NCBI GenBank assembly: GCA_001769505.1
Contig: MEOF01000045.1
Span: 42,718-106,717 of the forward strand
Direction: 5' to 3'
DNA from: Bacteroidetes bacterium GWF2_33_38
GTDB taxonomy: Bacteria; Bacteroidota; Bacteroidia; Bacteroidales; GWF2-33-38
DNA length: 64,000 nt
A program made the translations under genes and the position numbers. Position 1 is the stretch's first letter. Every line of letters begins with the position of its first letter. The notes beneath the pieces were generated by a model. The model did no database searches and was not told where the DNA came from. It saw nothing but the letters and a program-made list of their open reading frames with translations. This document shows, in pieces, positions 12,505 through 36,881 of this stretch.

Positions 12505-13488
12505 ATGAATACAGCTAAAAAAGTGTTAGTTTCTGGTGGAGCAGGTTATATTGGAAGCGTTTTAGTAAGATTACTTCTCGAAAAAGGCTATTCTGTTAGA
12601 GTTATAGATAAGCTTAATTTTGGAGGAGAACCCATTATGGATTTACTTAATAATCCTAATTTTTCTTTTTATAAGGGAGATATTAGAAATGCTGACGATG
12701 TTTCAAAAGCAATGAAAGGAGTTGACTATGTGGCACATCTAGCAGCAATCGTTGGAGATCCCGCTTGTGCAGTAAATCCAGAATTAACAAAATCTGTTAA
12801 TTTAGACGGAGCCAAACTAATGTATCAAAAAGCAAACGAGGCTGGTGTTAAAAAATTAATTTTTTCATCAACTTGTAGCAATTATGGAAAAATGAAAGAT
12901 CCTAATAGTTTTGTAAATGAAGAATCTGAACTGGCTCCTGTTTCTTTATATGCAGAAACAAAAGTAGAATTTGAAAATTTTTTATTGTCTCAAAACAAAA
13001 GTAATATCTGTAAGCCGACTATTTTAAGATTTTCGACTGTATATGGTCTATCATTAAGACCAAGGTTCGATTTAACCGTAAATGAGTTTACAAAAGAGCT
13101 TGCAATGAATCGCGAATTAGTTGTATTTGGAGAACAATTCTGGAGACCATACTGCCACGTTGTCGATTTAGCAAGAAGTGTAATTAAGGTTATTGAAGCT
13201 GATGAACAAAATGTTGCATTTGATGTTTTTAATGTTGGTGATACAGACGAAAATTATCAAAAACAGATGATTATAAATGAGATTGTTAAAAAAATTCCCG
13301 AATCAAAAGTTAAATACGTAAGTAAAAACGAAGATCCTAGAGACTATCGCGTAAATTTTGATAAAATCAAAATAAAATTAGGATTTACTATTACAAAAAA
13401 GGTTCCTGATGGAATAGATCAAATAATTAAAGTAATAAAAGACGGATTTATTATTAACCCTGATGACCCCAAATATAAAAACACTTAA
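12505..13488 (+). CDS. NAD-dependent epimerase/dehydratase family (extended SDR) sugar-nucleotide enzyme
   Basis: GGAGYIGS Rossmann motif and catalytic S...YAETK. Confidence 0.85.
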   Translation: MNTAKKVLVSGGAGYIGSVLVRLLLEKGYSVRVIDKLNFGGEPIMDLLNNPNFSFYKGDIRNADDVSKAMKGVDYVAHLAAIVGDPACAVNPELTKSVNLDGAKLMYQKANEAGVKKLIFSSTCSNYGKMKDPNSFVNEESELAPVSLYAETKVEFENFLLSQNKSNICKPTILRFSTVYGLSLRPRFDLTVNEFTKELAMNRELVVFGEQFWRPYCHVVDLARSVIKVIEADEQNVAFDVFNVGDTDENYQKQMIINEIVKKIPESKVKYVSKNEDPRDYRVNFDKIKIKLGFTITKKVPDGIDQIIKVIKDGFIINPDDPKYKNT

Positions 13489-14258: not shown

Positions 14259-14588
14259 TTGTTTAAAAAACATATAATAAGAAAGCATCTACATTCATCG
14301 GAAAACACCGAAAAAACAATTGTGGTATCTAAAATTATGATTGAAAAAAATAAAATTTGGTTTATCCATCGTATTTTAGAATATGGTTTATTGAGAGATT
14401 GGGTTTTTATATTAAAAAAATATGGAATAGATGAAATTGCACAAATTGCAATTAATTTGAAAGATTTAGATAAAAAAACAATATCACTAATCTCAGTTTT
14501 ATCAGGAGTTCCAAAAGAGAATTTTTTATGTTACAATACCGAAGCCTCGAACCAAAAACATTGGAATTTAAAAAAAGTTAATGAATGA
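14259..14588 (+). CDS. DUF6922-like small protein (usual partner of AbiEii-type nucleotidyltransferases), possibly degenerate
   Basis: The core ...FIHRILEYGLLRDWVFILKKYGIDEIAQIA...LDKKTISLISVLSGVPKENFLCY resembles the DUF6922 family. The ORF has only a TTG start; the first ATG is at ~14337. Confidence 0.4.
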   Translation: MFKKHIIRKHLHSSENTEKTIVVSKIMIEKNKIWFIHRILEYGLLRDWVFILKKYGIDEIAQIAINLKDLDKKTISLISVLSGVPKENFLCYNTEASNQKHWNLKKVNE

Positions 14589-14748
14589 AGAGGTTTTTTC
14601 GAACTTGAAATTTGTTGGAGGAACATCATTTGTATCGCAAATTGGAAACAGACAATCTATTGATATAAAAATATTTGAAAAGATTAGCTGGGAACAAATT
14701 AAGAAAAAAATTCTTTTGGAATTAAATTCACATATAAAATTATCATAA
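14581..14748 (+). pseudogene. 55-aa remnant resembling the N-terminus of an AbiEii/AbiGii-family nucleotidyltransferase toxin
   Basis: My hand translation: MNEEVFSNLKFVGGTSFVSQIGNRQSIDIKIF... resembles the (L/F)xGGTAL...G.R.S.DLDxF N-terminal motif. It ends after 55 aa, whereas the family is several-fold longer. Below the ORF-track size cut-off. Confidence 0.4.
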
Positions 14749-15884
14749 TGTATAGTAACATAGTTGATTTCATAAAGCAGACTTATCAAAAAGATAAGGT
14801 TATATTACACGAGCCCACATTCATTGGCAATGAAAAAAAATACGTCAACGAATGCATCGACACAACTTTTGTATCAAGCGTGGGAAAATTTGTTGATAAA
14901 TTTGAAGATTTAACAGCAGAATATACGGGAGCAAAAAAAGCGATTGTTTGTGTAAACGGAACAAATGCGTTGTATTTAGCATTGTTGCTAGTTGGGGTAA
15001 AACAAGGAGACGAAATTATAACACAACCCTTAACATTTATTGCAACAGCAAATTCCATATCGTATTGCAATGCAAACCCGATTTTTATCGACGTTGATAA
15101 AGAAACCATGGGACTAAGTCCTAAAAAACTCAACGAATTTTTATCGAAAAACACCGAAATAAAAAACAATGCTTGTTACAATTTAAAAACTAGGAAAAAA
15201 ATTGCGGCTTGTGTTCCAATGCACACTTTTGGACATCCTGCAAAAATTGATGAAATAATTGATATTTGTAATAAATATAAAATCGAAGTTGTTGAAGATG
15301 CTGCCGAAAGCATGGGCTCAACCTACAAAGGAAAACACACCGGAACATTTGGGAAATTAGGAATTTTGAGTTTCAATGGAAACAAAACCATAACTACCGG
15401 TGGCGGTGGCATGATTTTAACAAACGACGAAGAACTTGGAAAATTTGCAAAACACCTTACCACGCAATCAAAGGTTCCGCACCCATGGGAGTTCAATCAC
15501 GATAACATCGGATATAATTATCGAATGCCCAATATAAATGCAGCACTTGGCTGTGCACAAATTGAAAAGCTTGATTTTTTTATCGAAAAAAAAAGATTAC
15601 TAGCTACAAAGTACAAAGAGTTTTTTAAAAATACTTCGCTTCAGTTTTTTTCTGAACCCGAGAATTCATTTTCAAATTATTGGCTAAATGTTGTATTGCT
15701 CGAAAATAGAGAAAAACGTAACGAATTTCTCGAATTTACAAACAAAAATGGAGTGATGACTCGTCCTGCATGGACACTAATGAATAAATTACCAATGTTT
15801 CAACACTGCCAAACCGAAAATATTGAAAACGCTCAATGGTTTGAAGATAGACTTGTTAATATTCCAAGTAGTGTGATAATTTAA
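14748..15884 (+). CDS. legC: LegC-type DegT/DnrJ/EryC1/StrS aminotransferase (nonulosonic acid pathway)
   Basis: LHEPTFIGNEKKYVNECIDTTFVSSVGKFVDKFE N-terminus and the SFNGNKTITTGGGG PLP-lysine motif. Confidence 0.8.
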   Translation: MYSNIVDFIKQTYQKDKVILHEPTFIGNEKKYVNECIDTTFVSSVGKFVDKFEDLTAEYTGAKKAIVCVNGTNALYLALLLVGVKQGDEIITQPLTFIATANSISYCNANPIFIDVDKETMGLSPKKLNEFLSKNTEIKNNACYNLKTRKKIAACVPMHTFGHPAKIDEIIDICNKYKIEVVEDAAESMGSTYKGKHTGTFGKLGILSFNGNKTITTGGGGMILTNDEELGKFAKHLTTQSKVPHPWEFNHDNIGYNYRMPNINAALGCAQIEKLDFFIEKKRLLATKYKEFFKNTSLQFFSEPENSFSNYWLNVVLLENREKRNEFLEFTNKNGVMTRPAWTLMNKLPMFQHCQTENIENAQWFEDRLVNIPSSVII

Positions 15885-15908
15885 AAAATTTATTATGGTA
15901 TTTTGCAA

Positions 15909-17291
15909 ATGACCGAAAAAGAAATATTAGATATTATTAAAAGTGGAGAAAACAGTTTTGTAGAGTTTAAACTGAATTTTAACATTGATGTAATTATATC
16001 TTTATGTGCATTTGCAAACGCAAAAGGAGGTAAGGTAATTATAGGAATATCTGACATAGGCGAAGTTAGAGGAATATCAATTCATAAAGAATCATTTCAA
16101 ACTTGGTTAAACGAAATAAAATCAAAAACAATACCTTCTATTATTCCTGATATCGAAGTGGTTGATATTAATAACAAGAAAATTTTAATAATTTCGATTC
16201 CTGAATTTCCTATTAAACCTGTTTCGATGCAAGGTCGATATTTTCAGCGTAAAAACAATTCAAATCATCAACTTTCACTTAACGAAATATCTGATTTATA
16301 TATACAAAGCATGCAAATATCGTGGGACTCATATACTTATCCAAATTCTACGATTAATGACATAAACTTAAAAAAAGTTGCAGTTTTTATTAACAACGTC
16401 AATAAAATTGGTCGATTTCATATAGAAGAAATCGAGATAAAAGCCTTAGAAAAACTTGGACTGATAAAAGAAAACAAACCTACAAATGCAGGAATGATTT
16501 TATTTTCGAAAGAAAATTTACGATACAACGTTCATATTGGAAAATTTAAAACTCCCGACAAGATTATTGCAGATAAAATGATAAACGGCAATTTGTTTGA
16601 TGTGTTGGAAGAATCCTTGCAAGTTATTATAGGACATTTGAAATTTGCATTTGAAATTACAGGAAAAACTACTCAACGAACAGAAATTCCGGAATATCCC
16701 TTAAATGCAATACGGGAACTTCTCGTAAATTCACTTGTTCATAGAGATTATAAAAGTTCAATTGATATTCAAATTAAAATTTTTGATCAATCAATTAGCT
16801 TTTTCAATCCAAGCGGTTTATATGGAAATCTTAAAATTGAAGATTTGAAAACAGATAATTATCGTGCAAGTACCAGAAATAAATTAATTGCCGAAGCCCT
16901 TTATCTAACAAGCGATATTGAAAAATATGGAAGTGGTTTTATTCGTATTCGCAAAGCTATTGCCGAATACCCAACCATGAAATTTGAATATAAAGAAATT
17001 CCAAATGGTTTTTTAGCAGAATTGAATTATTCAAAACAAAAACTATCCCTTGATAATGTCGTAGATAATGTCGTAGATAATGTCGTAGATAATGTCGTAG
17101 ATAATGTCGTAGATAATGAACAAAAAATTATAGATTTACTGAAATTAAATAATAAATTATCGGCGAAACAATTATCAGAAAAATTAAACATAACCGATCG
17201 GTCAGTGCAAAGATATCTTAAAACATTAAGAGAAAAAGGAACTATTAAACGTATTGGTTCTGACAAAGGTGGTTACTGGAAAATAATTTAA
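15909..17291 (+). CDS. AlbA_2 (Schlafen-like) + RecG-C-terminal-like ATPase + C-terminal wHTH protein (COG2865-type putative regulator)
   Basis: N-terminal GENSFVEFK...AFANAKGG AlbA_2 motif. Central ...IRELLVNSLVHRDY... domain. C-terminal LSAKQLSEKLNITDRSVQRYLKTLREKG HTH. The ATG at 15909 is preferred over the TTG at 15903. Confidence 0.75.
   Translation: MTEKEILDIIKSGENSFVEFKLNFNIDVIISLCAFANAKGGKVIIGISDIGEVRGISIHKESFQTWLNEIKSKTIPSIIPDIEVVDINNKKILIISIPEFPIKPVSMQGRYFQRKNNSNHQLSLNEISDLYIQSMQISWDSYTYPNSTINDINLKKVAVFINNVNKIGRFHIEEIEIKALEKLGLIKENKPTNAGMILFSKENLRYNVHIGKFKTPDKIIADKMINGNLFDVLEESLQVIIGHLKFAFEITGKTTQRTEIPEYPLNAIRELLVNSLVHRDYKSSIDIQIKIFDQSISFFNPSGLYGNLKIEDLKTDNYRASTRNKLIAEALYLTSDIEKYGSGFIRIRKAIAEYPTMKFEYKEIPNGFLAELNYSKQKLSLDNVVDNVVDNVVDNVVDNVVDNEQKIIDLLKLNNKLSAKQLSEKLNITDRSVQRYLKTLREKGTIKRIGSDKGGYWKII
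17052..17118 (+). repeat. In-frame 12-bp tandem repeat, 5.6 copies (GATAATGTCGTA = DNVV)
   Basis: Perfect copies at 17052, 17064, 17076, 17088 and 17100, plus a partial copy. Encodes (DNVV)x5 between the ATPase-like and HTH domains. Confidence 0.97.
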
Positions 17292-17404
17292 TGAACAAAA
17301 TGAATAAATTACCAATGTTCAAACATTGTCAAACAGAAAATATTGAAAATGACGAATGGCTAGAAAATAGCCTCGTTAATATTCCAAATAGTATGATAAT
17401 GTAA
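17291..17404 (+). pseudogene. Remnant of the 3' end of a second legC allele
   Basis: 17300-17404 aligns codon for codon with 15780-15884 (88/105 nt identical, my count). It encodes MNKLPMFKHCQTENIENDEWLENSLVNIPNSMIM, against the intact C-terminus MNKLPMFQHCQTENIENAQWFEDRLVNIPSSVII. Confidence 0.8.
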
Positions 17405-17406
17405 AT

Positions 17407-17991
17407 ATGGATAAACCTAAAATAATAATATTTGGTGGTGGTGGACATTGCAAATCGTGTATTGATGTAATAGAAACAGAAAATAGATTTATAATTGCAG
17501 GAATTGTTGATATAAAAGAAAAGATTGGAGAAGAAATTTTAGGATATAAAATAATAGGATGTGATTTTGATATTCCAGAATTAATTAAGAAGTATAAAAA
17601 TGCATTGATTACAATAGGACAAATTTCATCACCAGAAAACAGAATAAGAATTTTTAATATTTTGGAAAATAATCAGGCAAACTTACCTACAATTATTTCT
17701 CCTTTTGCTTACGTGTCGAAACATACAAAAATAGGAAAAGGAACGATTGTTCTGCACCATGCACTAATATATGCAAATGCACAAATAGGAATAAACTGTA
17801 TTATTAACTCAAAGGCTCTTATTGAACAAGATGTAGAAATTGGAGATCATTGTCATATTTCAACCTCTTCTGTTGTAAATGGAGGTGTTAAAATTGGAGA
17901 TAAAGTTTTTTTTGGAAGTAATGCTGTTAGTAGGCAAGGAGTTGAAATATCGGATTATAGTTTTATAAAAGCAAATAGTATAGTAAAATGA
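17407..17991 (+). CDS. NeuD/PglD-family sugar N-acetyltransferase (left-handed beta-helix)
   Basis: N-terminal IIIFGGGGHCKSCIDV Rossmann-like motif followed by hexapeptide repeats. This is the position expected for a LegH-like step. Confidence 0.85.
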   Translation: MDKPKIIIFGGGGHCKSCIDVIETENRFIIAGIVDIKEKIGEEILGYKIIGCDFDIPELIKKYKNALITIGQISSPENRIRIFNILENNQANLPTIISPFAYVSKHTKIGKGTIVLHHALIYANAQIGINCIINSKALIEQDVEIGDHCHISTSSVVNGGVKIGDKVFFGSNAVSRQGVEISDYSFIKANSIVK

Positions 17992-18113
17992 AAAAAGTAA
18001 TCATCATAGCAGAAGCGGGAGTAAACCATAATGGATATATATTTTTTATGGCCTCTATAATGAATCTTCAATTCTCATATAAGCACGACATATCACTTCA
18101 TATTAAAAAATGA
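17988..18113 (+). pseudogene. Remnant of the 5' end of a second neuB allele (first 16 codons), fused to unrelated sequence
   Basis: 17988-18035 (MKKVIIIAEAGVNHNG) aligns with 21823-21870 (MTKVIIIAEAGVNHNG), 39/48 nt identical by my count. It keeps the ATGA overlap with the acetyltransferase stop, then diverges and stops at 18113. Confidence 0.8.
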
Positions 18114-19138
18114 ATCGAAAGACTACTTCAATAGAGCCTAACTTTTTCGCTTTTGTAAAAGAAATCAAAAGCAAGATTTTATCTTCGCAATATGAGGCTT
18201 TAAAGGCTGTAAACAAAGAGCTGATTAATCTCTATTGGGAAATTGGAAAAAAAATTGTAGAAAAACAAGAACAGTTTGGTTGGGGTAAATCGATAGTAAA
18301 AACTTTATCGAACGAATTACAAAAAGAGTTTATTGGCATCAAAGGTTTTAGTGTACAAAATCTTTGGAATATGCGACAATTTTATACTGATTATCAAAAC
18401 ACTGCAAAACTCCAGACATTGTCTAGAGAAATCGGATGGTCGCACAATGTGGTGATTTTTCAAAAATGCAAAGACGATTTCGAAAAAGAGTTTTATATAA
18501 AAATGGTAATTAAATACGGCTGGACTTATCGAGTTTTAGACCATAACATAGATCAAAAAGCATACGAAAAGTATCTGCTCAATCAAACAAATTTTGATAA
18601 TACTATTTCCGAAAAATATAAGCATCAAGCAAAATTGGCTATAAAAGATGCCTATAACTTCGATTTTCTAGAAATTGGACAAACACATAGTGAGCACGAG
18701 TTAGAAGCTGGTTTGATTGGAAAAATTAGAAATTTTCTTGCACAAATCGGCTCCGATTTTGCATTTATAGGAAATCAATACAAACTTGTAGTTGACGATG
18801 AAGAATATTTTATAGATTTGCTTTTGTATCATCGGCGTCTTAAATCACTTATAGCTATCGAATTAAAAGTGGGCAAATTTAAACCTGAGTATTCTGGAAA
18901 AATGAATTTTTACTTGACAGCTCTTAACGAAACCATAAAACTACCTGACGAAAATCCATCAATTGGCATCATTATTTGTAAAGAGAAAAAAAGAACAACC
19001 GTTGAATATGCACTAAAAGATAGCAATCAACCCATTGGAGTTGCCACTTACAAATTAACAGAGTCATTACCCAATGAACTTCGCGACTTGCTCCCAAGTA
19101 CTAGAGAGATAATTCAAAAATTAGAAAATATAATGTAG
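18110..19138 (+). CDS. DUF1016/YhcG-family PDDEXK nuclease-fold protein
   Basis: DUF1016 N-terminal region (YWEIGKKIVEKQEQFGWGKSIV). C-terminal PDDEXK-like core (FIDLLLYHRRLKSLIAIELKVGKF). Confidence 0.8.
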   Translation: MNRKTTSIEPNFFAFVKEIKSKILSSQYEALKAVNKELINLYWEIGKKIVEKQEQFGWGKSIVKTLSNELQKEFIGIKGFSVQNLWNMRQFYTDYQNTAKLQTLSREIGWSHNVVIFQKCKDDFEKEFYIKMVIKYGWTYRVLDHNIDQKAYEKYLLNQTNFDNTISEKYKHQAKLAIKDAYNFDFLEIGQTHSEHELEAGLIGKIRNFLAQIGSDFAFIGNQYKLVVDDEEYFIDLLLYHRRLKSLIAIELKVGKFKPEYSGKMNFYLTALNETIKLPDENPSIGIIICKEKKRTTVEYALKDSNQPIGVATYKLTESLPNELRDLLPSTREIIQKLENIM

Positions 19139-19199
19139 TATGCTGTATTTTGTAACATATATTTAATTACGGGTTTAAAAAAAACATACGTTGCTGAGA

Positions 19200-20225
19200 A
19201 TGAAAAAAATTATTAAAATCGGAGGCGAGTTTGATATTAATCCGAATATCCTTGAAGGATATCCCGATTATACACCAAACAATAATACATATTTGTATTC
19301 TAGCGGAAGAAGTGCTCTAATGGCAATACTTAAGCAAGTAAGCACATACGGAAAATCTATAATTCATATACCTTATTATATTTGCCCCTCCGTTGTTTTT
19401 GCATGTGAAAAAGCAGGATTTGACGTTAAATTTTATGAGCTAGATAAAAATTATTTATTCCCTCTAGAGTACTTGACGAACATTAGAATAAATGACGTTG
19501 TTTTAACAGTAAACTATTTCGGCTTTGTTGATGATAATCCGACAATACTTGAAATTAGAAATTTACGACCAGACATAACAATTATTAGTGATCAAGTTCA
19601 ATCCTTTTGGACTTATGATAAAACTGAGGCTGACTTTTCTTTTACCAGCTTAAGAAAGCATTTTCCAATACCTGATGGGGCATTAATATATTCTAAAAAT
19701 CAGCCCATTGAGCTTAAATTTTCTTTAAAAGAATCTTTTTTTTACAAAAATAAGCTTATCGGCTCATTGTTGAAAAATCAAAGCCTGCCAGATAATATAT
19801 ATCTTAAATTTTTTGAAGATGCAGAATTAGAGCTAGACATTGAGAAAGAACCATTAAAAGCATCGAAATTATCACATTTCTTATATGAAAAGATTGATTT
19901 TGAAAAAATTAGAACCAAAAGAAACGAAAATTATAAATATACCTACGAAATAGGACTGCAATTTGGATTGAATTTTATGTTTTCTTATAACGATTCTGTT
20001 ACCCCATTAAATGTTCCAATTTTATTAAATAACAGAGACCATGTTCGCAAAAAAATAATGAATAACAATATTTTTTTGCCTATTCATTGGACTCAATCAA
20101 ATTATAATATTTGTTCTGACACGGCAAAAAGAATTGGAATAAATGAATTATCTTTGGTTATTGATCAGCGTTATTCAAAAGAAGAAATATACTATCAAAT
20201 AGAAATAATAAGCAAAATGATATGA
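19200..20225 (+). CDS. Hypothetical protein, possibly a DegT-like (fold-type I PLP) enzyme
   Basis: Weak resemblance only: ...YSSGRSALMAIL..., SFTSLRKHFPIPDGAL in the position of the PLP-lysine loop. The ATG at 19200 is preferred over the TTG at 19191. Confidence 0.35.
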   Translation: MKKIIKIGGEFDINPNILEGYPDYTPNNNTYLYSSGRSALMAILKQVSTYGKSIIHIPYYICPSVVFACEKAGFDVKFYELDKNYLFPLEYLTNIRINDVVLTVNYFGFVDDNPTILEIRNLRPDITIISDQVQSFWTYDKTEADFSFTSLRKHFPIPDGALIYSKNQPIELKFSLKESFFYKNKLIGSLLKNQSLPDNIYLKFFEDAELELDIEKEPLKASKLSHFLYEKIDFEKIRTKRNENYKYTYEIGLQFGLNFMFSYNDSVTPLNVPILLNNRDHVRKKIMNNNIFLPIHWTQSNYNICSDTAKRIGINELSLVIDQRYSKEEIYYQIEIISKMI

Positions 20226-20782
20226 TTAGTGAAGCAAAAAGATTTGTATTATTTATCGGAACTCGACTAGAAGCTTTTAAAGCGACTCAAATACTTATAG
20301 AAGGGAAAAGCGAATATTCACTTTATGTCGCAACTTTTTTAAATACTAAATTGCATGAATATTTAGTAAACACGAATTATAATTCACACAAAGTGTTCAG
20401 TAAATCCAAAAATCAGGCATTAAACGAATTACAAACAATTATTTGCGAATTGAATCCTGAATTTGTAATTTCCGTGGGGTTTCCTTATATTATACCCCCA
20501 AATATACTTGATTATAAGGAAATTCGTTTCTATAATTTGCACCCACATATTCTGCCTAAATGGAAAGGATATAATGCAATTAAAGACAGTTTAGCCCAAA
20601 ACGAAAATTATTTTGGAGCAACTTTTCATAATATGACGGTAGAAGTTGATGATGGCGAAATTATATTTCAACAAGGTTTCATCCTTGATAATAGAAATTT
20701 ACCTCACATTTACGATGCTTTATTCTCTATAATTGAACCTTTTGTCATAATTAATGGGCTAAAAAGAGTATTGAATGAATAA
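20222..20782 (+). CDS. Formyltransferase-family protein (N-terminal catalytic domain only)
   Basis: YNLHPHILPKWKGYNAIKDSL matches the N-x-H-x-S-L-L-P-x-x-R/K-G formyltransferase motif; 186 aa. Confidence 0.6.
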   Translation: MISEAKRFVLFIGTRLEAFKATQILIEGKSEYSLYVATFLNTKLHEYLVNTNYNSHKVFSKSKNQALNELQTIICELNPEFVISVGFPYIIPPNILDYKEIRFYNLHPHILPKWKGYNAIKDSLAQNENYFGATFHNMTVEVDDGEIIFQQGFILDNRNLPHIYDALFSIIEPFVIINGLKRVLNE

Positions 20783-21821
20783 CAATAATTACACACAGTG
20801 TCTTAATCTATTTTCAATTAAAAATAAAGACATATATTTCTTGGAAAACTACATGAGAATTTATGAGTCAGACAATGAAAACAAAATGAATTTTTACTTT
20901 TTTGAACAACAAAACAATATTGCTTTGTATCCTTTTTTTAAAAATATGATTCCTGAAATTTATAATAACTATAATCAAAACTTCTACGACATTCAAAGTG
21001 CTTATGGGTATTGTGGAATTTTAACCAACTCATATGAACCTTCATTTATTAACGATTTTTATAAGTCATTTGAAAAATATTGCATACAGAATAATATTAT
21101 AGCCGAATTTACACGTTTTAACCCACTTTTACAAAACCATCAATTTTCGAAAAATCATCTAACTGTAATTTTCGATAGGGAAACCGTTGCTCTTGAATTA
21201 AATCAGAGCTATGACAATATTTGGTTAAATGAATATTCTTCCAAAAATAGGAATATGATTAGAAAAGCCCAAAAATTAGGATTTTCTTCAAAAATCATTT
21301 CAAACCCATCAAAAGAAGACATTGATAAATTTATTTCCATTTATTACCATAGTATGGAGAAGGTTGGAGCTGAAAAATATTATTTTTTCGACAATAATTA
21401 TTTTTATAATATTTTCGGCGATTTAAAGGAAAATTCCTACTTATTCTTTATAATTGACAACGAAAATCAAGTTGTTTGTTCTTCAATTTTCTTTCATTAT
21501 GGCGATTATTTTCATTATCATCTTTCGGGGAGAAGTGAAAAAGCAGATAATTCTGTTAATAGTTTCCTTTTGGATGAAGCAGTCAAATTTGCTAAAAGCA
21601 AAGGTGCAATTACTTTCCATTTTGGCGGTGGACGGACTGCCGACTCTGACGATAGTTTGCTAAAATTTAAAACCAGTTTTTCTAAAACCAGGTTATCATT
21701 TTATATTGGGAAAAAAATACACAATACAGAGGTTTACACTAATATTGTAAAACAATGGGAAAAGTTGTTCCCAGAAAAAATCGAAAAGTTTAAAAATCAT
21801 ATTCTAAAATACAGATACTAG
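20775..21821 (+). CDS. FemAB-like / GNAT-fold acyl- or aminoacyl-transferase
   Basis: Size (348 aa) and a C-terminal ...YHLSGRS...NSFLLDEAVKFAKSKGAITFHFGGG pattern resemble FemAB/BioF2-like GNAT proteins. The call comes from memory of the family only. Confidence 0.5.
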   Translation: MNNNNYTQCLNLFSIKNKDIYFLENYMRIYESDNENKMNFYFFEQQNNIALYPFFKNMIPEIYNNYNQNFYDIQSAYGYCGILTNSYEPSFINDFYKSFEKYCIQNNIIAEFTRFNPLLQNHQFSKNHLTVIFDRETVALELNQSYDNIWLNEYSSKNRNMIRKAQKLGFSSKIISNPSKEDIDKFISIYYHSMEKVGAEKYYFFDNNYFYNIFGDLKENSYLFFIIDNENQVVCSSIFFHYGDYFHYHLSGRSEKADNSVNSFLLDEAVKFAKSKGAITFHFGGGRTADSDDSLLKFKTSFSKTRLSFYIGKKIHNTEVYTNIVKQWEKLFPEKIEKFKNHILKYRY

Positions 21822-21822
21822 T

Positions 21823-22845
21823 ATGACTAAAGTAATAATTATCGCAGAAGCAGGGGTTAATCATAATGGAGATATTGATTTAGCCTTTAAGCTTATTGAT
21901 GCAGCTGCAGAGGCTGGGGTTGACTATATTAAATTTCAAACATTCATCACAGAATTTATTGTTGATAAAAGTGCACAAAAGGCTGAATATCAAAAAACAA
22001 CAACAAGTAGCGAAGAAACACAGTTTGAAATGATCAAAAAATTGGAATTTACCTTTGAAGACTTTCATAAGTTAAAGGCATACTGTGAAAAGAAGAATGT
22101 TAAGTTTCTTACTACAGCTGCAGATTTAGTTAGCCTTGAAAAAATTGATGAATACAGTTTAGATTATATAAAAATTGCATCAGGGGAATTAACTAATATT
22201 CTCTTTCTCAGAAAAGCAGCGTTAAAGAAAAAACCAATTATTCTTTCTACAGGAATGGCAACGCTTAGTGAAATAGACATAGCACTAAAAACATTACGTG
22301 ATGGAGGTGCTTCAATTGATGATATAACAGTACTACATTGTAATACAGAATATCCTACGCCTTTCGAAGATGTCAATCTAAAAGCGATGAATACTATTGC
22401 ACAATCTTTTAAAGTTAAAGTTGGGTATTCAGATCATACATTAGGAATTGAAATCCCTATCGCAGCAGTTGCAATGGGTGCAACTATTATTGAAAAGCAT
22501 TTTACAATTGATAAAAAATTACATGGTCCCGATCATGCAGCATCGCTTACCCCCGAAGAATTAAAAGCAATGGTAAAAGCTATTAGAAATGTTGAATGTG
22601 GTATTTTTGGTTCGGGCAGAAAAGAACCAAGTAAGTCGGAGTCCAAAAATATAATTATTGTCAGAAAAAGTTTATTTGCTTCCAATTCGATATCAAAAGG
22701 GGACATTTTTTCAGAATCAAACCTTATTCTGAAAAGACCAGGAGATGGCATTCCTGCAATAGATATTGACAAAATTTTAGGAAAAAAAGCCAATTCCAAT
22801 ATTGAAAAAGGACAAAAACTAAATTATACAGATATTGCATGGTGA
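21823..22845 (+). CDS. neuB: N-acetylneuraminate/legionaminate synthase family (NeuB/LegI)
   Basis: IIAEAGVNHNGD N-terminus, ...GYSDHT... motif and a C-terminal SAF domain. Confidence 0.9.
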   Translation: MTKVIIIAEAGVNHNGDIDLAFKLIDAAAEAGVDYIKFQTFITEFIVDKSAQKAEYQKTTTSSEETQFEMIKKLEFTFEDFHKLKAYCEKKNVKFLTTAADLVSLEKIDEYSLDYIKIASGELTNILFLRKAALKKKPIILSTGMATLSEIDIALKTLRDGGASIDDITVLHCNTEYPTPFEDVNLKAMNTIAQSFKVKVGYSDHTLGIEIPIAAVAMGATIIEKHFTIDKKLHGPDHAASLTPEELKAMVKAIRNVECGIFGSGRKEPSKSESKNIIIVRKSLFASNSISKGDIFSESNLILKRPGDGIPAIDIDKILGKKANSNIEKGQKLNYTDIAW

Positions 22846-23969
22846 AAATAGGCGTTTTGACAAGTTCTAGAGCCGATTTTGGAGTTTACTTACCTTTGCT
22901 AAAAGCATTTGTTAAAGATTCCGAAATTAGTTTTGAAATTATTGCTTTTGGAACTCATTTATCGAATTTACATGGTTATACAATAAATGAGATTCGCGAA
23001 AGTGGTTTTATCGTTAAATTTGAAATTTCATCTATGCTTGCTGATGATTCCGAATTAGCTGTTTCAACATCTGGAGCATTAACTTCATTGAAATTCTCGG
23101 ATTTTTGGGATAAATATAAAGATGAATTTGATTTGGTGCTTTGTTTAGGCGATCGTTTTGAAATGTTTTCAGCTGTCATTGCTGGAATTCCTTTTGGAAT
23201 TAAATTTGCTCATTTTTATGGAGGCGATTATAGTCAGGGTGCAATAGACAATGTTTATAGGAATGGAATGACACATTCGTCAATTTTACATTTTACCTCA
23301 ACAACTAAGTGTGCCAATCGTGTTCGAGCTATGATTAATTCGAAAGAAAATGTATATGATGTTGGTATTTTAAGTTTGAGTGGATTAAATAAAGTTAAGT
23401 TTTTGTCAAAAAACGATTTTTATACCAAATGGCATATCGACTTAAATATACCTACAATACTCATTACTTTTCATCCTGAAACAATTGATAGCCATAGCAA
23501 CGAAATATATTCACAAGTTGTATATGACGTTTTATTAGAACTAAAAAAAACATATCAATTAGTAATTACCATGCCCAATGCCGATACCAACGGTATTACA
23601 TACAGAAGAAAATACGAATTATTCACTAAAGAAGACTCTAAAAATGTTTTTTTAATTGAAAATTTTGGAATTGAATCATATATGACTTGTATGAAATATT
23701 CCTTGTTAATGATTGGAAATACATCAAGTGGAATAACTGAATCAGCGTCCTTTAATAAATATTTTGTAAATGTTGGAAAAAGACAAAAGGGCAGAGAGAT
23801 GGGAAATAATATAATAAATTCGGATTTTGAAAAAAGCATGTTAATCCAATCCATAAATCTCGCCCTATCACTTGGAGAATTTAATGAAGATAACATCTAT
23901 TTTAAAAAAGATGCTATCGATGGAGTCCTATCGACAATAAAGTTTTTGTTAGAGAATAAACGAATATAA
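22839..23969 (+). CDS. neuC: UDP/GDP-N-acetylglucosamine-type 2-epimerase (hydrolysing), NeuC/LegG-like
   Basis: KIGVLTSSRADFG N-terminus, ...LGDRFE..., ...GNTSSGI... motifs. Overlaps the neuB stop. Confidence 0.85.
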   Translation: MVKIGVLTSSRADFGVYLPLLKAFVKDSEISFEIIAFGTHLSNLHGYTINEIRESGFIVKFEISSMLADDSELAVSTSGALTSLKFSDFWDKYKDEFDLVLCLGDRFEMFSAVIAGIPFGIKFAHFYGGDYSQGAIDNVYRNGMTHSSILHFTSTTKCANRVRAMINSKENVYDVGILSLSGLNKVKFLSKNDFYTKWHIDLNIPTILITFHPETIDSHSNEIYSQVVYDVLLELKKTYQLVITMPNADTNGITYRRKYELFTKEDSKNVFLIENFGIESYMTCMKYSLLMIGNTSSGITESASFNKYFVNVGKRQKGREMGNNIINSDFEKSMLIQSINLALSLGEFNEDNIYFKKDAIDGVLSTIKFLLENKRI

Positions 23970-24065: not shown

Positions 24066-25115
24066 ATGAACAACAATCTTCAAAAATACACCATCAATCA
24101 AAATGCTTCCCTTATCGAAGCGTTAAAAAAAATGTCGGAAATACCAGACACCTTAAACTTGTTTGTGCTAAACGACCAAGAAGAACTTATTGGGACTCTT
24201 ACCGATGGAGATGTTCGCCGAGGCTTGATAAACGGACTTAATGTAAATTCAAAATTAATAGATTTTATTTTTAGAGATTTCCAATACATAAAAGCAGGGA
24301 ATTTTGATAAAAAAATAATCACCATTATTCGCAAAAAGAACATTAAAATTGTTCCTATTCTTGATAATAACAACCAAATTATCAAATTGTTAAATTTCAA
24401 AAAAATTAAATCTCTCATTCCTGCCGATGCAGTTTTAATGGCAGGAGGCGAGGGGCTGCGATTACGCCCACTTACCGAAAAAACACCAAAGCCATTGTTG
24501 AAAATCGGAGGAAAAGCAATTATTGAATATAATATTGACCGATTACAACAATTTGGAATTCAAAATCAATTTATCTCAATCAACTATTTGGGAGAGCAAA
24601 TAATTTCTTTCTGTAAACACAAAGAATCAGATATTAATTTCAAATTTATAAGAGAAACCAAGCCTCTTGGAACAATTGGCTCGGTAAAACTCGTTGAACA
24701 TTTCGAAAATGACTATATTTTAATCATGAATTCTGATTTATTGACAAACATCAACTTTGAAGATTTTTACGATTCTTTTGTTTCTAAGAATGCCGATATG
24801 ATTGTTGCTGCAATTCCTTATAAAGTTGATTTGCCATACGCTATATTTGAAACCGAAGATCGCAATATATTGTCGTTCAAAGAAAAGCCAAGTTATACAT
24901 ATTATGCCAATGCAGGAATTTATCTCATCAAAAAAGAGTTGATTAACTTAATCCCTTCAGACGAGATTTTTAATGCAACAGATTTTATGCAAGCCGTCAT
25001 CAACAAAGGATTACAAGTGGTTCATTACCCAATTCGCTCGTATTGGCTCGACATCGGAAATCCCGACGATTTTGAAAAAGCTCAACGAGATGTATCTCAT
25101 ATTGATTTCGATTAA
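24066..25115 (+). CDS. CBS-domain sugar-phosphate nucleotidyltransferase (PtmE-like)
   Basis: N-terminal CBS pair (...LTDGDVRRGL...) followed by the LMAGGEGLRLRPLTEKTPKPLL nucleotidyltransferase motif. Confidence 0.8.
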   Translation: MNNNLQKYTINQNASLIEALKKMSEIPDTLNLFVLNDQEELIGTLTDGDVRRGLINGLNVNSKLIDFIFRDFQYIKAGNFDKKIITIIRKKNIKIVPILDNNNQIIKLLNFKKIKSLIPADAVLMAGGEGLRLRPLTEKTPKPLLKIGGKAIIEYNIDRLQQFGIQNQFISINYLGEQIISFCKHKESDINFKFIRETKPLGTIGSVKLVEHFENDYILIMNSDLLTNINFEDFYDSFVSKNADMIVAAIPYKVDLPYAIFETEDRNILSFKEKPSYTYYANAGIYLIKKELINLIPSDEIFNATDFMQAVINKGLQVVHYPIRSYWLDIGNPDDFEKAQRDVSHIDFD

Positions 25116-25135
25116 ACATTATGATAATACATCGA

Positions 25136-25258
25136 TTAACTTTGACAAAGTTATTCTTAAGAAAATTGAAAATACTTAATATTCAGCAGCATAATAAAAT
25201 CGACAACTTTGTCAAAGTTTTAATTATCAGGTTAATATAAAAATTAAACGAACTATTG
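25136..25258 (+). repeat. Double-palindrome intergenic repeat, copy A1
   Basis: ~90% identical to 36726-36849 (my hand alignment). Perfect palindromes AACTTTGACAAAGTT (25138-25152) and AACTTTGTCAAAGTT (25205-25219). The tail ATATAAAAATTAAACGAACTATTG ends 2 nt before the neuA ATG. Confidence 0.9.
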
Positions 25259-25260
25259 TC

Positions 25261-25947
25261 ATGATAAACAATACTAAAATTTTAGCCATTATTACGGCTA
25301 GAGCTGGAAGCAAAAGATTGCCCAATAAAAACATTAAAAACTTAGCTGGCAAACCTCTAATTGCTTGGTCAATTGAAGCCGCATTAAGTTCAAAATATAT
25401 TGATAAAACAATTGTTTCGACCGATTCTAACGAAATAAAAAAAATATCAGAGTCTTACGGAGCAAGCGTTCCCTTTATTCGTCCAACTGAATTAGCAAGC
25501 GATACCTCCGATTCAATTTCAGTTTTAAAACACGCCATCGACTTTTTTCAAAATGAATATAAATACATAGTTCTATTGCAACCCACCTCTCCGTTACGTT
25601 CTGTTGACGATATTAACGCAGCGATTGAAATGCTAAACAATGATACAAAATCAGTAATATCTGTATGCGAAACTGACCATTCTCCTCTATGGGCAAATGT
25701 TTTGCCCGAAGATTTTTCGATGGAAAATTTTATACGTCCTGAAATTAGAAACAAGCGTTCTCAAGATTTACCAAAATATTACCGATTAAACGGAGCTGTT
25801 TACGTATCTGAGATTAAATATCTTTACGAAAACAACGGATTTTTAGGACATCAAACAAAAGCCTATGTAATGCCACGTGAAAGAAGCATTGATATTGACA
25901 ACGAAATTGATTTTAAACTTGCGGAACTAGTATTAAAATCGGAATAA
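25261..25947 (+). CDS. neuA: N-acylneuraminate (nonulosonate) cytidylyltransferase
   Basis: AIITARAGSKRLPNKN N-terminus and ...LQPTSPLR... motif. Confidence 0.9.
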   Translation: MINNTKILAIITARAGSKRLPNKNIKNLAGKPLIAWSIEAALSSKYIDKTIVSTDSNEIKKISESYGASVPFIRPTELASDTSDSISVLKHAIDFFQNEYKYIVLLQPTSPLRSVDDINAAIEMLNNDTKSVISVCETDHSPLWANVLPEDFSMENFIRPEIRNKRSQDLPKYYRLNGAVYVSEIKYLYENNGFLGHQTKAYVMPRERSIDIDNEIDFKLAELVLKSE

Positions 25948-27295: not shown

Positions 27296-27816
27296 GGGTG
27301 ATGAAGAGGGGAAAGTAATGTAGTGATGGAGTACGAAGTGATGGAGTAACGGAGTAATGTAGTGATGATAGTTAAGAAGTGATGGCGGGAAAAATAACGA
27401 AGTAATGTAGTGATGATAGTGAAGAAGTAACAGAGTTAAGAAGTAATGAAGAGGAAAAATGAAAACACATAATGATTTAGATGCTTGGAAAAGCTCGCTA
27501 GAGTTTGTTACACAAATATACAAATTCAACGAAACTTTTTCGAAAAGTGAAGAATTTGGACTTAAAAATCAACTGAGACAAGCGACTTTTTCTATCCCTT
27601 TAAATATTGCTGAGGGAGTAGCCCAAAATCATACTAAAGAATTAATAAAAGTAAAAGAACTCGACATAATTAAAATTAAGCAGAGCAATCAAATACAAAA
27701 AAAAACAGAACGTCCCAAAACTTCATAACCCTCATAACTATGCTACTCCATTACGATATAACTCTCATTACTCTCATAACTATGTTACTCCATAACTATT
27801 ATAACTCTACAAAAAA
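27296..27816 (+). repeat. Four-helix-bundle cassette E2: word array, truncated ORF, complementary word array; fills the gmd/rmlC-like spacer
   Basis: Upstream (27296-27458): GTGATGR/GTAATGR/GTAACGR/GTTAAGR words. Downstream (27729-27816): CATAAC/CATTAC/TTACTC words. Confidence 0.75.
27459..27728 (+). pseudogene. Four-helix-bundle (23S-IVS/Avd-like) gene with an internal deletion
   Basis: The first ~60 codons parallel 29238-29552 (MKTH.DLDAWKSS.EFVTQ.YK...NIAEG...NHTKE). The FIQFLYISLGSLSEVETQLII helix region is then missing and the reading continues into tail sequence. Confidence 0.7.
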
Positions 27817-29094: not shown

Positions 29095-29715
29095 CAAAGT
29101 TATGATAGTGATGGAGTTATGAAGTGATGGAGTGGGGAAAGTGATGAAGAGGGGAAAGTTACAAAGAGATGAAGTAACGAAGTTATGGAGTGACAAAGTG
29201 TGGAAGTGCAAAAGTTAAAAAGTAATGAAGAGGAAAAATGAAGACACATAAAGATTTAGATGCTTGGAAAAGCTCGGTAGAGTTTGTTACTCAAATGTAC
29301 AAAATCACCGAAAGTTTTCCGAAAAGCGAAGAATTTGGTCTTAAAGACCAATTACGTCGGGCAGCTGTATCGATTCCTTCAAACATTGCTGAGGGAGCAG
29401 CTCGGAATCATACCAAAGAATTTATTCAATTTTTATACATCTCATTAGGAAGTTTATCAGAAGTAGAAACCCAATTAATAATTGCTCAAAACCTTAATTA
29501 TATAACCAATGGTAAATGGTATGTTTATTCAAACGGAACCTCAAATTATTAAAATTCGCTCTCAAATAAGCGGACTTATCAAATACCTAAAAACATTAAT
29601 CCCAAAAACTACATAACTATGTTACCCCATCATAACTATCATTACTTTATAACTCTCTTTACTCTTGTTACTATCATAACTATCATAACTCTATAACTAC
29701 CATAACTTAATAGAA
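29095..29715 (+). repeat. Four-helix-bundle cassette E3: word array, ORF, complementary word array; fills the methyltransferase/aminotransferase spacer
   Basis: Upstream (29095-29237): GTTATGR/GTGATGR/GTAACGR words, ending in the same AGTAATGAAGAGGAAAAATG junction as E2. Downstream (~29610-29712): CATAAC/CATTAC/GTTAC words. Confidence 0.75.
29238..29552 (+). CDS. Four-helix-bundle protein (23S-IVS/Avd-like family), probably frameshifted near the 3' end
   Basis: Family motifs KDLDAWKSS, LRRAAVSIPSNIAEG and SLGSLSEVETQLIIA. The expected C-terminal helix (...IIKIRSQISGLIKYLKTL) is readable only in the +1 frame after ~29510. Confidence 0.75.
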   Translation: MKTHKDLDAWKSSVEFVTQMYKITESFPKSEEFGLKDQLRRAAVSIPSNIAEGAARNHTKEFIQFLYISLGSLSEVETQLIIAQNLNYITNGKWYVYSNGTSNY

Positions 29716-36665: not shown

Positions 36666-36725
36666 TAAAAACCTTGAAGATTTATTTGCCAATTTGACCG
36701 AAGAATTAATTTAATAATATTTAGG

Positions 36726-36849: not shown

Positions 36850-36881
36850 AATATAAACAACTATTAGGAAAATATAAAAAG

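Follow-up and report, generated by a model that had tools for sequence, protein, structure and literature searches.

A neuB 5' stump beside a DUF1016 gene suggests allele displacement in a mosaic legionaminic acid locus

In a 64,000-nt stretch of DNA from a Bacteroidota metagenome-assembled genome (here called the window), the 5' end of neuB occurs twice within a legionaminic acid (Leg) locus, once as a 16-codon stump next to a DUF1016 gene and once in the intact gene. We propose that the stump is a scar in a mosaic operon, left when a resident allele, neuB', was displaced by imported DNA carrying DUF1016...neuB-neuC through homology-facilitated illegitimate recombination (HFIR). We assign this reading a probability of roughly 0.5.

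Results

The features of the locus are listed in Table 1. The LegC, NeuD/PglB-type, NeuB-type, and NeuC-type proteins all scored above their NCBIfam cutoffs, and a PtmE-like nucleotidyltransferase and a CMP-sugar synthetase are encoded downstream, as expected of a Leg biosynthesis locus. We did not find a canonical LegB 4,6-dehydratase: the product of 12505 to 13488 reached 91.5 bits on TIGR04180 (cutoff, 475) and belongs to a different subtype of SDR epimerase/dehydratase, sharing 64% identity with a neighbor in locus L049. An acetyltransferase gene directly beside neuB proved to be common, as legH lies within 120 nt of neuB in 45 of 83 loci, with a spacing of 3 nt or less in 4 of these 45. 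About 20 contigs encoding exactly the same proteins belong to one population and share the arrangement.

Table 1. Coordinates and assignments of features in the Leg locus (window positions)
Feature	Position	Strand	Basis or remark
Full-length LegC-family aminotransferase	14748..15884	+	TIGR04181 561 bits (cutoff 420); Pfam DegT
Passenger gene 1: Schlafen/AlbA_2 + HATPase_c_4 + HTH protein	15903..17291	+	Pfam
legC 3' stump, 37 codons (LegC aa 342-378)	17291..17404	+	Directly upstream of legH
LegH/PglD-type N-acetyltransferase, intact	17407..17991	+	TIGR03570 166 bits (cutoff 160.8)
neuB 5' stump, 16 codons + ~6 nt	17988..18041	+	ATG overlaps legH stop (ATGA)
25-codon tail completing 41-codon bridging ORF	18036..18113	+	TGA overlaps DUF1016 ATG
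Passenger gene 2: DUF1016_N + YhcG_C, predicted PD-(D/E)XK nuclease	18110..19138	+	Pfam; PADLOC candidate PDC-S02
Spacer, 61 nt	19139..19199		Sole uncoupled gap in gene chain
g5, 341-aa protein, first gene of conserved 3-gene module	19200..20225	+	Orthologues 52-53% (L001/L002)
g6, formyltransferase-like	20222..20782	+	PF00551 1.5e-20
g7, FemAB-like (Acetyltransf_6)	20775..21821	+	1516 homologues; 50-56% identical to L001/L002
Intact NeuB/LegI synthase	21823..22845	+	TIGR03569 464 bits (cutoff 400)
NeuC/LegG hydrolyzing 2-epimerase	22839..23969	+	TIGR03568 320 bits (cutoff 236)
PtmE-like CBS + nucleotidyltransferase	24066..25115	+	Pfam CBS + NTP_transferase
LegF-like CMP-sugar synthetase	25261..25947	+	Precomputed Pfam CTP_transf_3

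The initial annotation had described the neuB 5' end as duplicated, with all differences but one codon synonymous, and had taken the stump for a diverged functional allele; each of these points was borne out. The segments at 17988 to 18035 (ATGAAAAAAGTAATCATCATAGCAGAAGCGGGAGTAAACCATAATGGA, MKKVIIIAEAGVNHNG) and 21823 to 21870 (MTKVIIIAEAGVNHNG) are identical at 39 of 48 nucleotides and 15 of 16 amino acids. Their likeness spans about -8 to +54 and ends there, and blastn self-comparison of the 20-kb locus recovered the pair (E = 1e-7; 61 nt; 79%). Of 80 other neuB loci, 78 contain exactly one copy of the NeuB N-terminal motif [ILVFM][ILVA]AE.G.NH.G; the window is the sole locus with two. By codon position, the differences number 0/1/8 (8 of 9 in the third position), affecting 7 codons synonymously and 1 nonsynonymously. 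Because they lie almost entirely in third positions, the stump appears to derive from a diverged neuB allele that was formerly functional, which supports its identification as the 5' end of a displaced gene. It is equally close to many foreign neuB genes and to the resident neuB; judged from the comparison of sequences, the 48-nt segment is so highly conserved that it holds no phylogenetic signal. As in a displacement scar, a truncated end of a conserved gene abuts foreign DNA, with an intact copy close by.

The stump runs in frame into an unrelated 25-codon tail. The resulting 41-codon ORF (17988 to 18113) bridges legH and DUF1016, starting on the stop codon of the former and ending on the start codon of the latter, with ATGA present at both overlaps. 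At the internal joint (18033 to 18041), the two neuB copies share only GGA-ATAT (GGAtATAT versus GGAgATAT), a weak microhomology. No homologue of the tail was found in about 160 loci, and its origin as a NeuB C terminus was ruled out, with 164 of 200 shuffles scoring equally well or better. Between 15.4 and 23.2 kb we found no terminator-like site on the plus strand. The 41-codon ORF joins the legH stop to the DUF1016 start, so that translation of the promoter-less DUF1016 gene is probably still coupled to the operon. Such a placement, in an ORF that is intact and perfectly conserved in the population, might also be expected of a leader peptide or of a small functional gene that is conserved, or the ORF could be an in situ tandem duplication that decayed; in either case it would not be a scar. 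We regard this as highly improbable, since 8 of 9 differences in the third position are unlike the neutral decay of a local copy, the tail lacks a homologue among the loci compared, and only the window has the motif twice. The identity within the population is uninformative, as the whole locus is ~100% identical.

A second stump had been reported for legC, and it is real. It is identical to 15771 to 15887, at the 3' end of legC, in 93 of 117 nucleotides, and its differences by codon position (7/5/11) resemble the divergence of a functional allele more weakly than do those of the neuB stump. Its nearest relative is the window's own legC (90/107), any other locus reaching at most 80/112. The stop codon of the AlbA_2 gene overlaps the ATG of this stump (TAATG). 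The same passenger gene contains a 12-nt variable-number tandem repeat (VNTR) at 17052 to 17118, and its product differs among samples, from 448 to 462 aa.

The assignment of passenger gene 2 to DUF1016 was confirmed with HMMs, both domains matching at full length and above the gathering score: PF17761 (2e-45; 154.6 bits; cutoff, 32.8; profile positions 1 to 137 of 137) and PF06250 (1e-60; 204.1 bits; cutoff, 32.5; positions 3 to 157 of 157). The PADLOC PDC-S02 models match residues 7 to 340 (E = 2.3e-139). The gene is a candidate for a phage defense nuclease, PDC-S02 being a candidate class only. A predicted catalytic D...ELK motif is legible in the protein, FIDLLLYHRRLKSLIAIELK (..FIDLL..IAIELK..), and no solved homologue was found by sequence. 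Although the gene resembles the DUF1016/YhcG PDC-S02 family in these full-length matches, it differs in that its subfamily (at least 67% identity) lies mostly inside sugar operons, where its start codon sits on the preceding gene's stop codon (abutting or overlapping a same-strand ORF in 35 of 68 cases). This subfamily recurs in nonulosonic acid and sugar operons of other phyla. The protein is 73 to 79% identical between this genome and L073/L100, versus 53 to 63% for the neighboring Leg enzymes, and at the nucleotide level 80 relatives match only between 18150 and 19130, the homology stopping at the ORF edges. More distant relatives adjoin restriction-modification, helicase, and CRISPR genes; the restriction-modification and CRISPR neighborhoods were counted against the main reading.

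That both stump junctions carry defense-type genes had been noted before, and the comparison of loci indicates a recurrent pattern and not a coincidence. DUF1016 genes were strictly bracketed by direct repeats of neighbor-gene ends in 10 of 65 loci (8 of 63 when nonredundant), that is, in only ~13 to 15%. Among control ORFs the figure was 2 of 206, both of them KilA-N passengers, with 0 of 204 for ordinary genes (Fisher P = 7e-6, DUF1016 versus controls). The same scars are found at AlbA_2, HepT/MNT, KilA-N, PDDEXK_3, and GIY-YIG genes, with flanking duplications of 19 to 379 nt that are 72 to 100% identical. Locus L143 reads neuC-[ptmE 5' 25 codons + tail]-DUF1016-ptmE, and L100 reads neuB-KilA-N-[neuC 5' 13 codons + neuB 3' 28 codons]-DUF1016-[same chimera]-neuC, with ATGA at each junction. 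In L149, L106, and L123, a 3' stump of the upstream gene follows DUF1016, and in L049 the legH|neuB junction itself is occupied by an AlbA_2 gene, accompanied by a 58-nt legH 3' stump. The AlbA_2 ATPase, HepT/MNT, and KilA-N genes carry identical scars; therefore, nuclease activity is not required. The recurrence of the scars and their enrichment at passengers support the suggestion that DUF1016 hitch-hikes with cassette exchange, whereas the other suggestion, that such genes promote exchange, gained no support for the nuclease.

Direct repeats of host sequence around passengers in many loci would also be produced by a Campbell-type event, in which a circle carrying DUF1016 (with or without g5 to g7) and a short neuB 5' segment integrates by a single crossover in neuB. 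The identical chimeric linkers between successive passengers of L100 look array-like, and circles would form anew by loop-out between the repeats. We nevertheless consider this origin quite improbable for the window. The 48-nt homology is 81%, and its stretches of perfect identity do not exceed 9 nt, far short of what a RecA-dependent crossover needs; the locus encodes no integrase or recombinase. Moreover, such an event predicts a legH-linked resident type for the remainder of neuB, whereas the affinities of neuB and neuC place them with the g5/g7 donors.

This grouping is evident from the relatives of each gene. The nearest loci, L001 and L002, hold legC-g5-GNAT-g7-neuB-neuC tightly packed and without legH. 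The neuB product is 71% identical to theirs and at most 61% to all others; for neuC the values are 59% and 56%, against 50% or less. g5 had no match in Pfam, NCBIfam, or PDB; the g6 position holds a GNAT gene in L001, L002, L183, and L185, the last two of which also have the g5-X-g7 module. The best relatives of legH are in L045 (60%), L073 (59%), L005 (58%), and L066 (57%), and those of legF are in L043 (59%), L073 (57%), and L100 (56%), versus 42% for L001 and 38% for L002. ptmE is closest to Bacteroidota loci (52 to 54%). In L073, L005, L066, L043, and L100, the nearest for legH or legF, legH and neuB overlap or abut, and the legC'-legH-neuB' fragment is collinear with L073 as far as 18036. 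By these identities, the ancestry of the locus is mosaic, L001/L002-like for neuB, neuC, g5, and g7 and Campylobacterota-like for legH and legF, and neuC is coinherited with neuB.

The initial annotation had placed a 3.8-kb insert between the neuB copies. The three tailoring genes do not fit a drop-in insert, as the closest loci hold g5-X-g7 between legC and neuB-neuC, without legH. Because L001 and L002 keep g5-X-g7-neuB-neuC as one block, the import most likely included neuB and neuC; it probably ran from DUF1016 through both, and its right boundary is most likely not 21823. The affinities of ptmE and legF differ again; therefore, more than one event is needed. We found neither a preinsertion allele or donor (x-DUF1016-g5-g6-g7-neuB) nor a close relative without the insert, the best neuB match being 71% and exact matches all coming from the same population.

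Two successive steps could also have built the block. DUF1016 would first have entered the resident neuB 5' end, duplicating its first 16 to 25 codons, and g5-g6-g7-neuB(-neuC) from an L001-type locus would later have replaced the resident neuB downstream of it, with DUF1016 or downstream genes as a possible homology anchor. L143, where a 5' stump, tail, and DUF1016 are followed at once by the full downstream gene, looks like the first step. The 61 nt that follow DUF1016 are the only uncoupled gap, breaks at 19081 and 19130, at the 3' end of DUF1016, occur in several independent assemblies from other samples, and all other g5-X-g7 modules retrieved lack DUF1016 upstream. We consider this history possible but doubtful: it costs one event more than a single import, its intermediate (legH-stump-DUF1016-neuB) was not found, and the breaks in the assemblies might be trivial in origin.

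The two stumps could be explained jointly if a 750-bp legC'-legH-neuB' fragment (17291 to 18041) of a canonical locus had been inserted between adjacent AlbA_2 and DUF1016 genes in an L001-type recipient (legC-...-g5-X-g7-neuB). In its favor, legH has a stump on either side, the two being diverged to a similar degree (79% and 81%), the collinearity with L073 covers exactly that span, L001 and L002 lack legH, and L117 and L161 have an AlbA_2 gene immediately next to DUF1016. However, two illegitimate joints would be needed in one event, and the in-frame stump-passenger joints with stop/start overlaps, as seen at many single-passenger insertions, would go unexplained. The foreign affinity common to legF and legH speaks for the legH type as the older backbone, and the legC stump resembles the resident legC far more than any other locus, as expected of anchored exchange between related alleles. 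An insertion of this kind is therefore unlikely.

Discussion

Displacement of neuB' by one-sided homologous plus illegitimate recombination, as in T6SS/Rhs arrays, is the best model for these observations. The order of events and the HFIR mechanism, as we infer them, would be the following. The resident locus would have been canonical (legC'-legH-neuB'-...-legF), with an ATGA overlap between legH and neuB like that of Campylobacterota-type loci. DNA of a different locus type, [25-codon tail-DUF1016-g5-g6-g7-neuB-neuC...], would have replaced neuB' from about codon 17 on. Its right end may have entered by homologous recombination somewhere downstream and its left end by an illegitimate joint inside neuB', that is, by HFIR ("displacement"), so that 16 codons of the old allele remained, joined in frame with the tail. 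On the other side of legH, this process in mirror image would account for the legC 3' stump next to AlbA_2. DUF1016 may be a mobile passenger that moves between sugar operons attached to conserved neighbor-gene ends, and these ends would serve as portable homology arms. The duplications that it leaves may later become substrates for unequal exchange.

Displacement arrays built through HFIR are known from Vibrio cholerae T6SS effector-immunity modules and Rhs/CDI C termini (Kirchberger et al. 2017, PMC5361080). There, as here, an incoming module anchored by a conserved neighbor displaces the resident copy and leaves a stump without an integrase, and repeated events build arrays. In contrast, the anchors in our loci are sugar-nucleotide biosynthesis genes and not toxin genes, the stumps come from both 5' and 3' gene ends and form in-frame bridging mini-ORFs with stop/start overlaps, and the cargo is a candidate defense or selfish gene instead of an effector-immunity pair.

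Integron cassettes are likewise promoter-less single-gene units in series and in one orientation, with repeated linkers (as in L100) and older units pushed downstream. Here, however, the linkers are locus-specific copies of local host gene ends, and we rejected an integron cassette, with no integrase or recombinase gene called in the 21-kb locus and no attC-like structure. An insertion sequence or transposon with target site duplication was rejected as well: there is no transposase domain, the duplications have the lengths and identities given above, and the DUF1016 homology ends at the ORF. Free-standing homing endonuclease genes also place nucleases between conserved genes (predicted PD-(D/E)XK here; GIY-YIG in L019), and coconversion of flanks would spread them. 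Homing nevertheless leaves no flank duplications, non-nuclease passengers here show the same scars, and the nuclease here is predicted from its sequence.

Recombination junctions in O-antigen and capsule loci also carry gene remnants, which are usually associated with insertion sequences or treated as incidental. Those loci resemble ours as mosaics of diverged alleles with pseudogene fragments at the joints and an occasional unrelated ORF. A systematic link to passenger genes, chimeric coupler ORFs, and recurrence across phyla were not found in the literature searched. A DUF1016 ORF lies at the edge of the capsule region of Neisseria animalis (PMC6202450).

Gene content of the operon

Families were assigned with Pfam and NCBIfam, except that the synthetase assignment was taken from precomputed Pfam results. 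The genes listed in the table below form a legionaminic-acid-type (Leg) operon, although the dehydratase encoded at 12505-13488 is not a canonical LegB (91 bits versus a cut-off of 475). The initial annotation had recognized a DUF1016/YhcG nuclease gene in this operon, and the HMM check agreed, recovering full-length DUF1016_N and YhcG_C domains. The same protein is also a match (E = 2e-139) to PDC-S02, a candidate defence family in PADLOC. PDB sequence searches with DUF1016 and with the product of g5 (the first of the three packed genes g5, g6, and g7) returned zero matches. Scans for sigma-70 and TAnnTTTG promoters stayed at chance level, and terminator-like sites were absent from the + strand between 15.4 and 23.2 kb. 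Between a methyltransferase gene and legC, the stretch 14259-14748 contains a small DUF6922 gene (109 aa) overlapped by a 55-aa ORF; the two may represent a toxin-antitoxin-like pair or one more small passenger.

Genes of the legionaminic-acid-type operon and their coordinates in the window
Gene product	Position	Source other than Pfam and NCBIfam
LegC-family aminotransferase	14748-15884	
Schlafen/AlbA_2 + HATPase_c_4 + HTH protein	15903-17291	
LegH, NeuD/PglB-type acetyltransferase	17407-17991	
DUF1016_N + YhcG_C PD-(D/E)XK protein, full length	18110-19138	
g5, 341 aa, no family	19200-20225	
g6, formyltransferase-like	20222-20782	
g7, FemAB-like	20775-21821	
NeuB	21823-22845	
NeuC	22839-23969	
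PtmE-like CBS-nucleotidyltransferase	24066-25115	
LegF-like CMP-sugar synthetase	25261-25947	Precomputed Pfam

Gene-end stumps flanking legH

The segment at 17988-18035 had been described as a second neuB 5' end, left behind by recombination. It translates as MKKVIIIAEAGVNHNG, while the intact NeuB, starting at 21823, begins with MTKVIIIAEAGVNHNG. The two segments share 39 of 48 nt, and the nine differences are distributed 0/1/8 over the three codon positions, giving seven synonymous codons and one replacement. Similarity spans about -8 to +54 and ends abruptly beyond. The ATG of this stump overlaps the TGA of the upstream acetyltransferase gene (ATGA), and the pair scored E = 1e-7 in a self-comparison of the 20-kb locus. 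Of 80 other neuB loci, 78 carry the NeuB N-terminal motif a single time; only the window has it twice. The duplication is thus confirmed, and its reading as a recombination scar is upheld. The third-position bias contradicts a local duplication that later decayed, and with no more than 9 identical nt in a row within the shared 48 nt, Campbell integration is unlikely. The 48-nt segment is too conserved to identify its donor.

The reading frame of the stump continues through 25 unrelated codons (the tail) to a TGA at 18111-18113, which overlaps the ATG of the DUF1016 gene, so that a 41-codon ORF bridges legH and DUF1016. We considered whether this ORF might be a neuB that had lost an internal segment in frame and descended from a legH-neuB-DUF1016 locus like that of L073 (Aliarcobacter). 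This was rejected, as 164 of 200 shuffled tails matched or exceeded the score of the real 25-aa tail against 81 NeuB proteins, and the tail lacks nucleotide similarity to the 3' end of the L073 neuB. Judged by these alignments, the tail is not a NeuB C-terminus. Its frame-2 translation, LYNESSILI*, resembles the LegC C-terminus LVNIPSSVII*, a likeness that we attribute to chance given the different serine codon families and the poor nucleotide identity. Neither the tail nor the 61-nt spacer had a significant match when about 160 loci were searched for their origin.

The companion legC stump reported upstream is also real: 17291-17404 matches the last 37 codons of legC at 93 of 117 nt. Its nearest relative by a clear margin is the resident legC (90/107, versus at most 80/112 for any other locus), which is consistent with anchored exchange between related alleles. 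The ORFs of 41 and 37 codons annotated in these assemblies are scars rather than genes. Within the adjacent AlbA_2 gene, a perfect 12-nt tandem repeat at 17052-17118 (GATAATGTCGTA, 5.6 copies) encodes DNVV repeats; its copy number varies among samples of one population, giving products of 448, 456, 460, and 462 aa.

Mosaic ancestry of the Leg genes

A NeuB scan limited to one genome per species yielded 80 loci, which we mapped with the proteins of the window. Loci in which the acetyltransferase gene adjoins neuB, the comparison proposed by the initial annotation, proved common, as did the canonical order legC-legH-neuB: legH lies within 120 nt of neuB in 45 of 83 loci and within 3 nt in four (L073, L005, L048, and L067). 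The contents of the legC-neuB interval differ by locus and include LegH, a 300-aa formyltransferase-like gene, ATP-grasp genes, or ACP/ligase sets, making this interval a variable N-acyl tailoring slot.

Two loci, L001 and L002, were the nearest relatives for the NeuB (71%), NeuC (59/56%), g5 (52 to 53%), and g7 (50 to 56%) of the window. Both have the tightly packed order legC-g5-GNAT-g7-neuB-neuC and lack legH, DUF1016, and AlbA_2. The window's legH is nearest to that of L045, L073, L005, and L066 (57 to 60%), and its legF to that of L043, L073, and L100 (56 to 59%, versus 38 to 42% for L001/L002); ptmE and the upstream genes have different affinities again. The locus thus combines at least three ancestries in a mosaic. 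Since g5, g7, neuB, and neuC share the same nearest relatives, the tailoring trio goes with the neuB and neuC now present. Consequently, of the 3.8-kb insert proposed between two neuB copies, the duplicated stump stands, but g5-g6-g7 did not enter between two copies of one neuB.

The arrangement g5-X-g7 is a conserved three-gene module beside DegT aminotransferase genes, seen in L001 and L002 and also in further metagenomic contigs (L183 and L185). Position X is occupied by a GNAT gene in the relatives and by the formyltransferase gene in the window; in protein P0113, the FemAB-like protein is fused to a PglD/LegH-like acetyltransferase. These features suggest an aminoacyl-then-cap modification of a 4-amino sugar, possibly N-formyl-aminoacyl in the window.

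The window was matched to contig DOSB01000049.1 of GCA_003512225.1, a groundwater MAG named Bacteroidetes bacterium GWF2_33_38. Exact-protein look-ups with NeuB and LegC revealed no within-population variant lacking the insert. All contigs were ~100% identical with the same gene order, and variation was limited to VNTR copy number and contig break positions. Independent assemblies of other samples stop at ~19081 (L093 and L099) and resume at 19130-19133 (L087 to L090), at the 3' end of DUF1016; these breaks may reflect strain heterogeneity or a repeat at the joint.

DUF1016 and other passengers at operon junctions

A metagenome scan with DUF1016 recovered 80 loci (57 to 79% identity), in which nucleotide homology to the window was limited to the ORF (18150-19130). 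Recognizable sugar-nucleotide genes adjoin DUF1016 in at least 25 of the 80. It follows neuB in L073, L105, L109, and L100, lies between neuC and ptmE in L143, and follows gmd in L121, while other loci have dehydratase and aminotransferase neighbors. More distant relatives adjoin restriction-modification, helicase, and CRISPR genes. The DUF1016 of the window, a Bacteroidota MAG, is 73 to 79% identical to that of L073 or L100, whereas the adjacent Leg enzymes are 53 to 63% identical, indicating that this passenger (a single gene at a stump-bearing junction) moved independently of its neighbors. In 35 of 68 loci, DUF1016 starts on or beside the stop codon of an ORF that precedes it on the same strand. 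The literature searched contained only incidental mentions of DUF1016, YhcG, or PDC-S02 in polysaccharide loci.

When every locus was compared with itself, direct repeats copying the ends of the neighboring genes were often seen on both sides of DUF1016. L143 reproduces the architecture of the window exactly: neuC is followed by the first 25 ptmE codons (69/81 nt) with an unrelated tail, DUF1016, and the full ptmE. In L100, the order is neuB, a KilA-N gene, a 41-codon chimera, DUF1016, the same chimera again, and neuC, with an ATGA overlap at every junction; the chimera joins 13 neuC-like 5' codons to the last 28 neuB codons (85/87 nt). In L149, L106, and L123, a 98- to 379-nt 3' stump of the upstream gene follows DUF1016. 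Passengers other than DUF1016 left similar traces. L049 carries an AlbA_2 gene between legH and neuB, the junction that is also affected in the window, with a 58-nt legH 3' stump behind it. HepT/MNT pairs sit at the legC 3' end in L027 and L035, where diverged legC stumps precede legH. Further bracketed genes encode AlbA_2 (L018), PDDEXK_3 (L025), GIY-YIG (L019), a zeta-like P-loop protein (L016), and DUF6934 (L048). The further suggestion that the nuclease promotes exchange is not supported, and non-nuclease passengers behave like nuclease ones. Taken singly, the scar of the window is of an ordinary kind.

Among loci with adequate flanks, strict bracketing was found for DUF1016 in 10 of 65 (8 of 63 when non-redundant), compared to 2 of 206 control ORFs of at least 200 aa from the same loci (Fisher P = 7e-6). 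Both bracketed controls are the KilA-N passenger, so no ordinary gene was bracketed (0/204). Together, recurrence and enrichment support the earlier suggestion that defence-type genes hitch-hike at cassette joints. The systematic tie of a promoter-less passenger set to duplicated neighbor ends and coupler mini-ORFs in sugar operons was absent from the literature searched.

In the Leg operon of L100/L101 (L100 2344-4068 and 5076-5882), an AIPR/AbiU-like gene separates a formyltransferase-like gene from neuB, and the KilA-N gene after neuB corresponds to PADLOC PDC-S22, which makes three defence-type passengers in one sugar operon. At L143 540-640, the DUF1016 copy lacks an in-frame ATG downstream of the stop codon before it, and its reading frame runs over the last part of the stump ORF; this copy may be frameshifted or fused, or an assembly error.

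A model for scar formation

One process would account for all three types of scar, namely a 3' remnant of the preceding gene located after the passenger, a 5' remnant of the following gene located ahead of it, and a chimera of the two. Incoming DNA would undergo homologous recombination in a conserved neighbor gene at one end and an illegitimate join inside the resident copy at the other. The same model has been proposed for T6SS effector-immunity arrays and Rhs displacement (PMC5361080). In the window, the neuB stump would be the left, illegitimate joint of an import carrying tail-DUF1016-g5-g6-g7-neuB-neuC, and the legC stump would lie at the right joint of an import that brought legC-AlbA_2; an older backbone would survive as legH, and possibly legF. 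Because the joints are in frame and on stop/start overlaps, we infer that the chain legC-AlbA_2-stump-legH-stump-DUF1016 stays tightly coupled; the order of events is likewise deduced.

A two-step course, in which DUF1016 arrived first and the cassette swap came later, is hinted at by the 61-nt gap and by the breaks in assemblies at 19081 and 19130. Alternatively, a 750-bp legC'-legH-neuB' fragment may have been inserted between adjacent AlbA_2 and DUF1016 genes, which is possible since the two are adjacent in L117 and L161; however, this would require two illegitimate joints and would leave the affinity of legF unexplained.

Nonulosonic acids on the cell surface serve as receptors for phages and as targets of immunity, and the genes that tailor them are frequently exchanged. 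If it is usual for candidate defence or selfish genes to ride in nonulosonic-acid operons, marking or even seeding the swap points, this would account for a nuclease gene that is far better conserved across phyla than its neighbors. A passenger next to a duplicated neighbor-gene end would then be a sequence signature of recent recombination joints in glycan loci, and defence genes would have an integrase-free route into core operons that leaves the operons unbroken. A broader reading, to which we assign a probability of roughly 0.25 as a whole, is that promoter-less, recombinase-less single-gene passengers represent a distinct mode of gene mobility. The set may comprise DUF1016/PDC-S02, AlbA_2, HepT/MNT, KilA-N/PDC-S22, PDDEXK_3, and GIY-YIG genes, spreading between operons, even across phyla, with conserved neighbor-gene ends as portable homology arms and entering exactly at stop/start junctions. 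Duplicated gene ends may become in-frame coupler mini-ORFs that keep the operon translationally linked, and may serve as landing pads on which integron-like arrays grow without an integrase. Such passengers may also, as a side effect, drive the reshuffling of surface-glycan tailoring cassettes.

Other repeats in the window

Two 23S_rRNA_IVP (four-helix-bundle) genes, at 27312-27646 and 29096-29425, are contained in 338-nt repeats (79% identical) on either side of a dTDP-sugar isomerase gene and a methyltransferase gene. A third copy, at 7299-7616 (- strand), lies between sdhB and sdhA. The same habit of a passenger in an operon seems to recur here in another gene family. An intergenic element of ~140 nt occurs at 25124-25271 and 36714-36860 (86 to 87% identity) and contains two palindromic AACTTTG(A/T)CAAAGTT boxes, including TAACTTTG. 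One copy is upstream of legF, where ancestry switches between ptmE and legF, and the other is upstream of the ORF at 36789; this repeat could be a small mobile element, or could act at both sites as a common promoter or operator. Finally, a 4662-aa ORF at 47350-61338 contains internal repeats with a period of about 2.0 to 2.2 kb and 64 to 70% identity.
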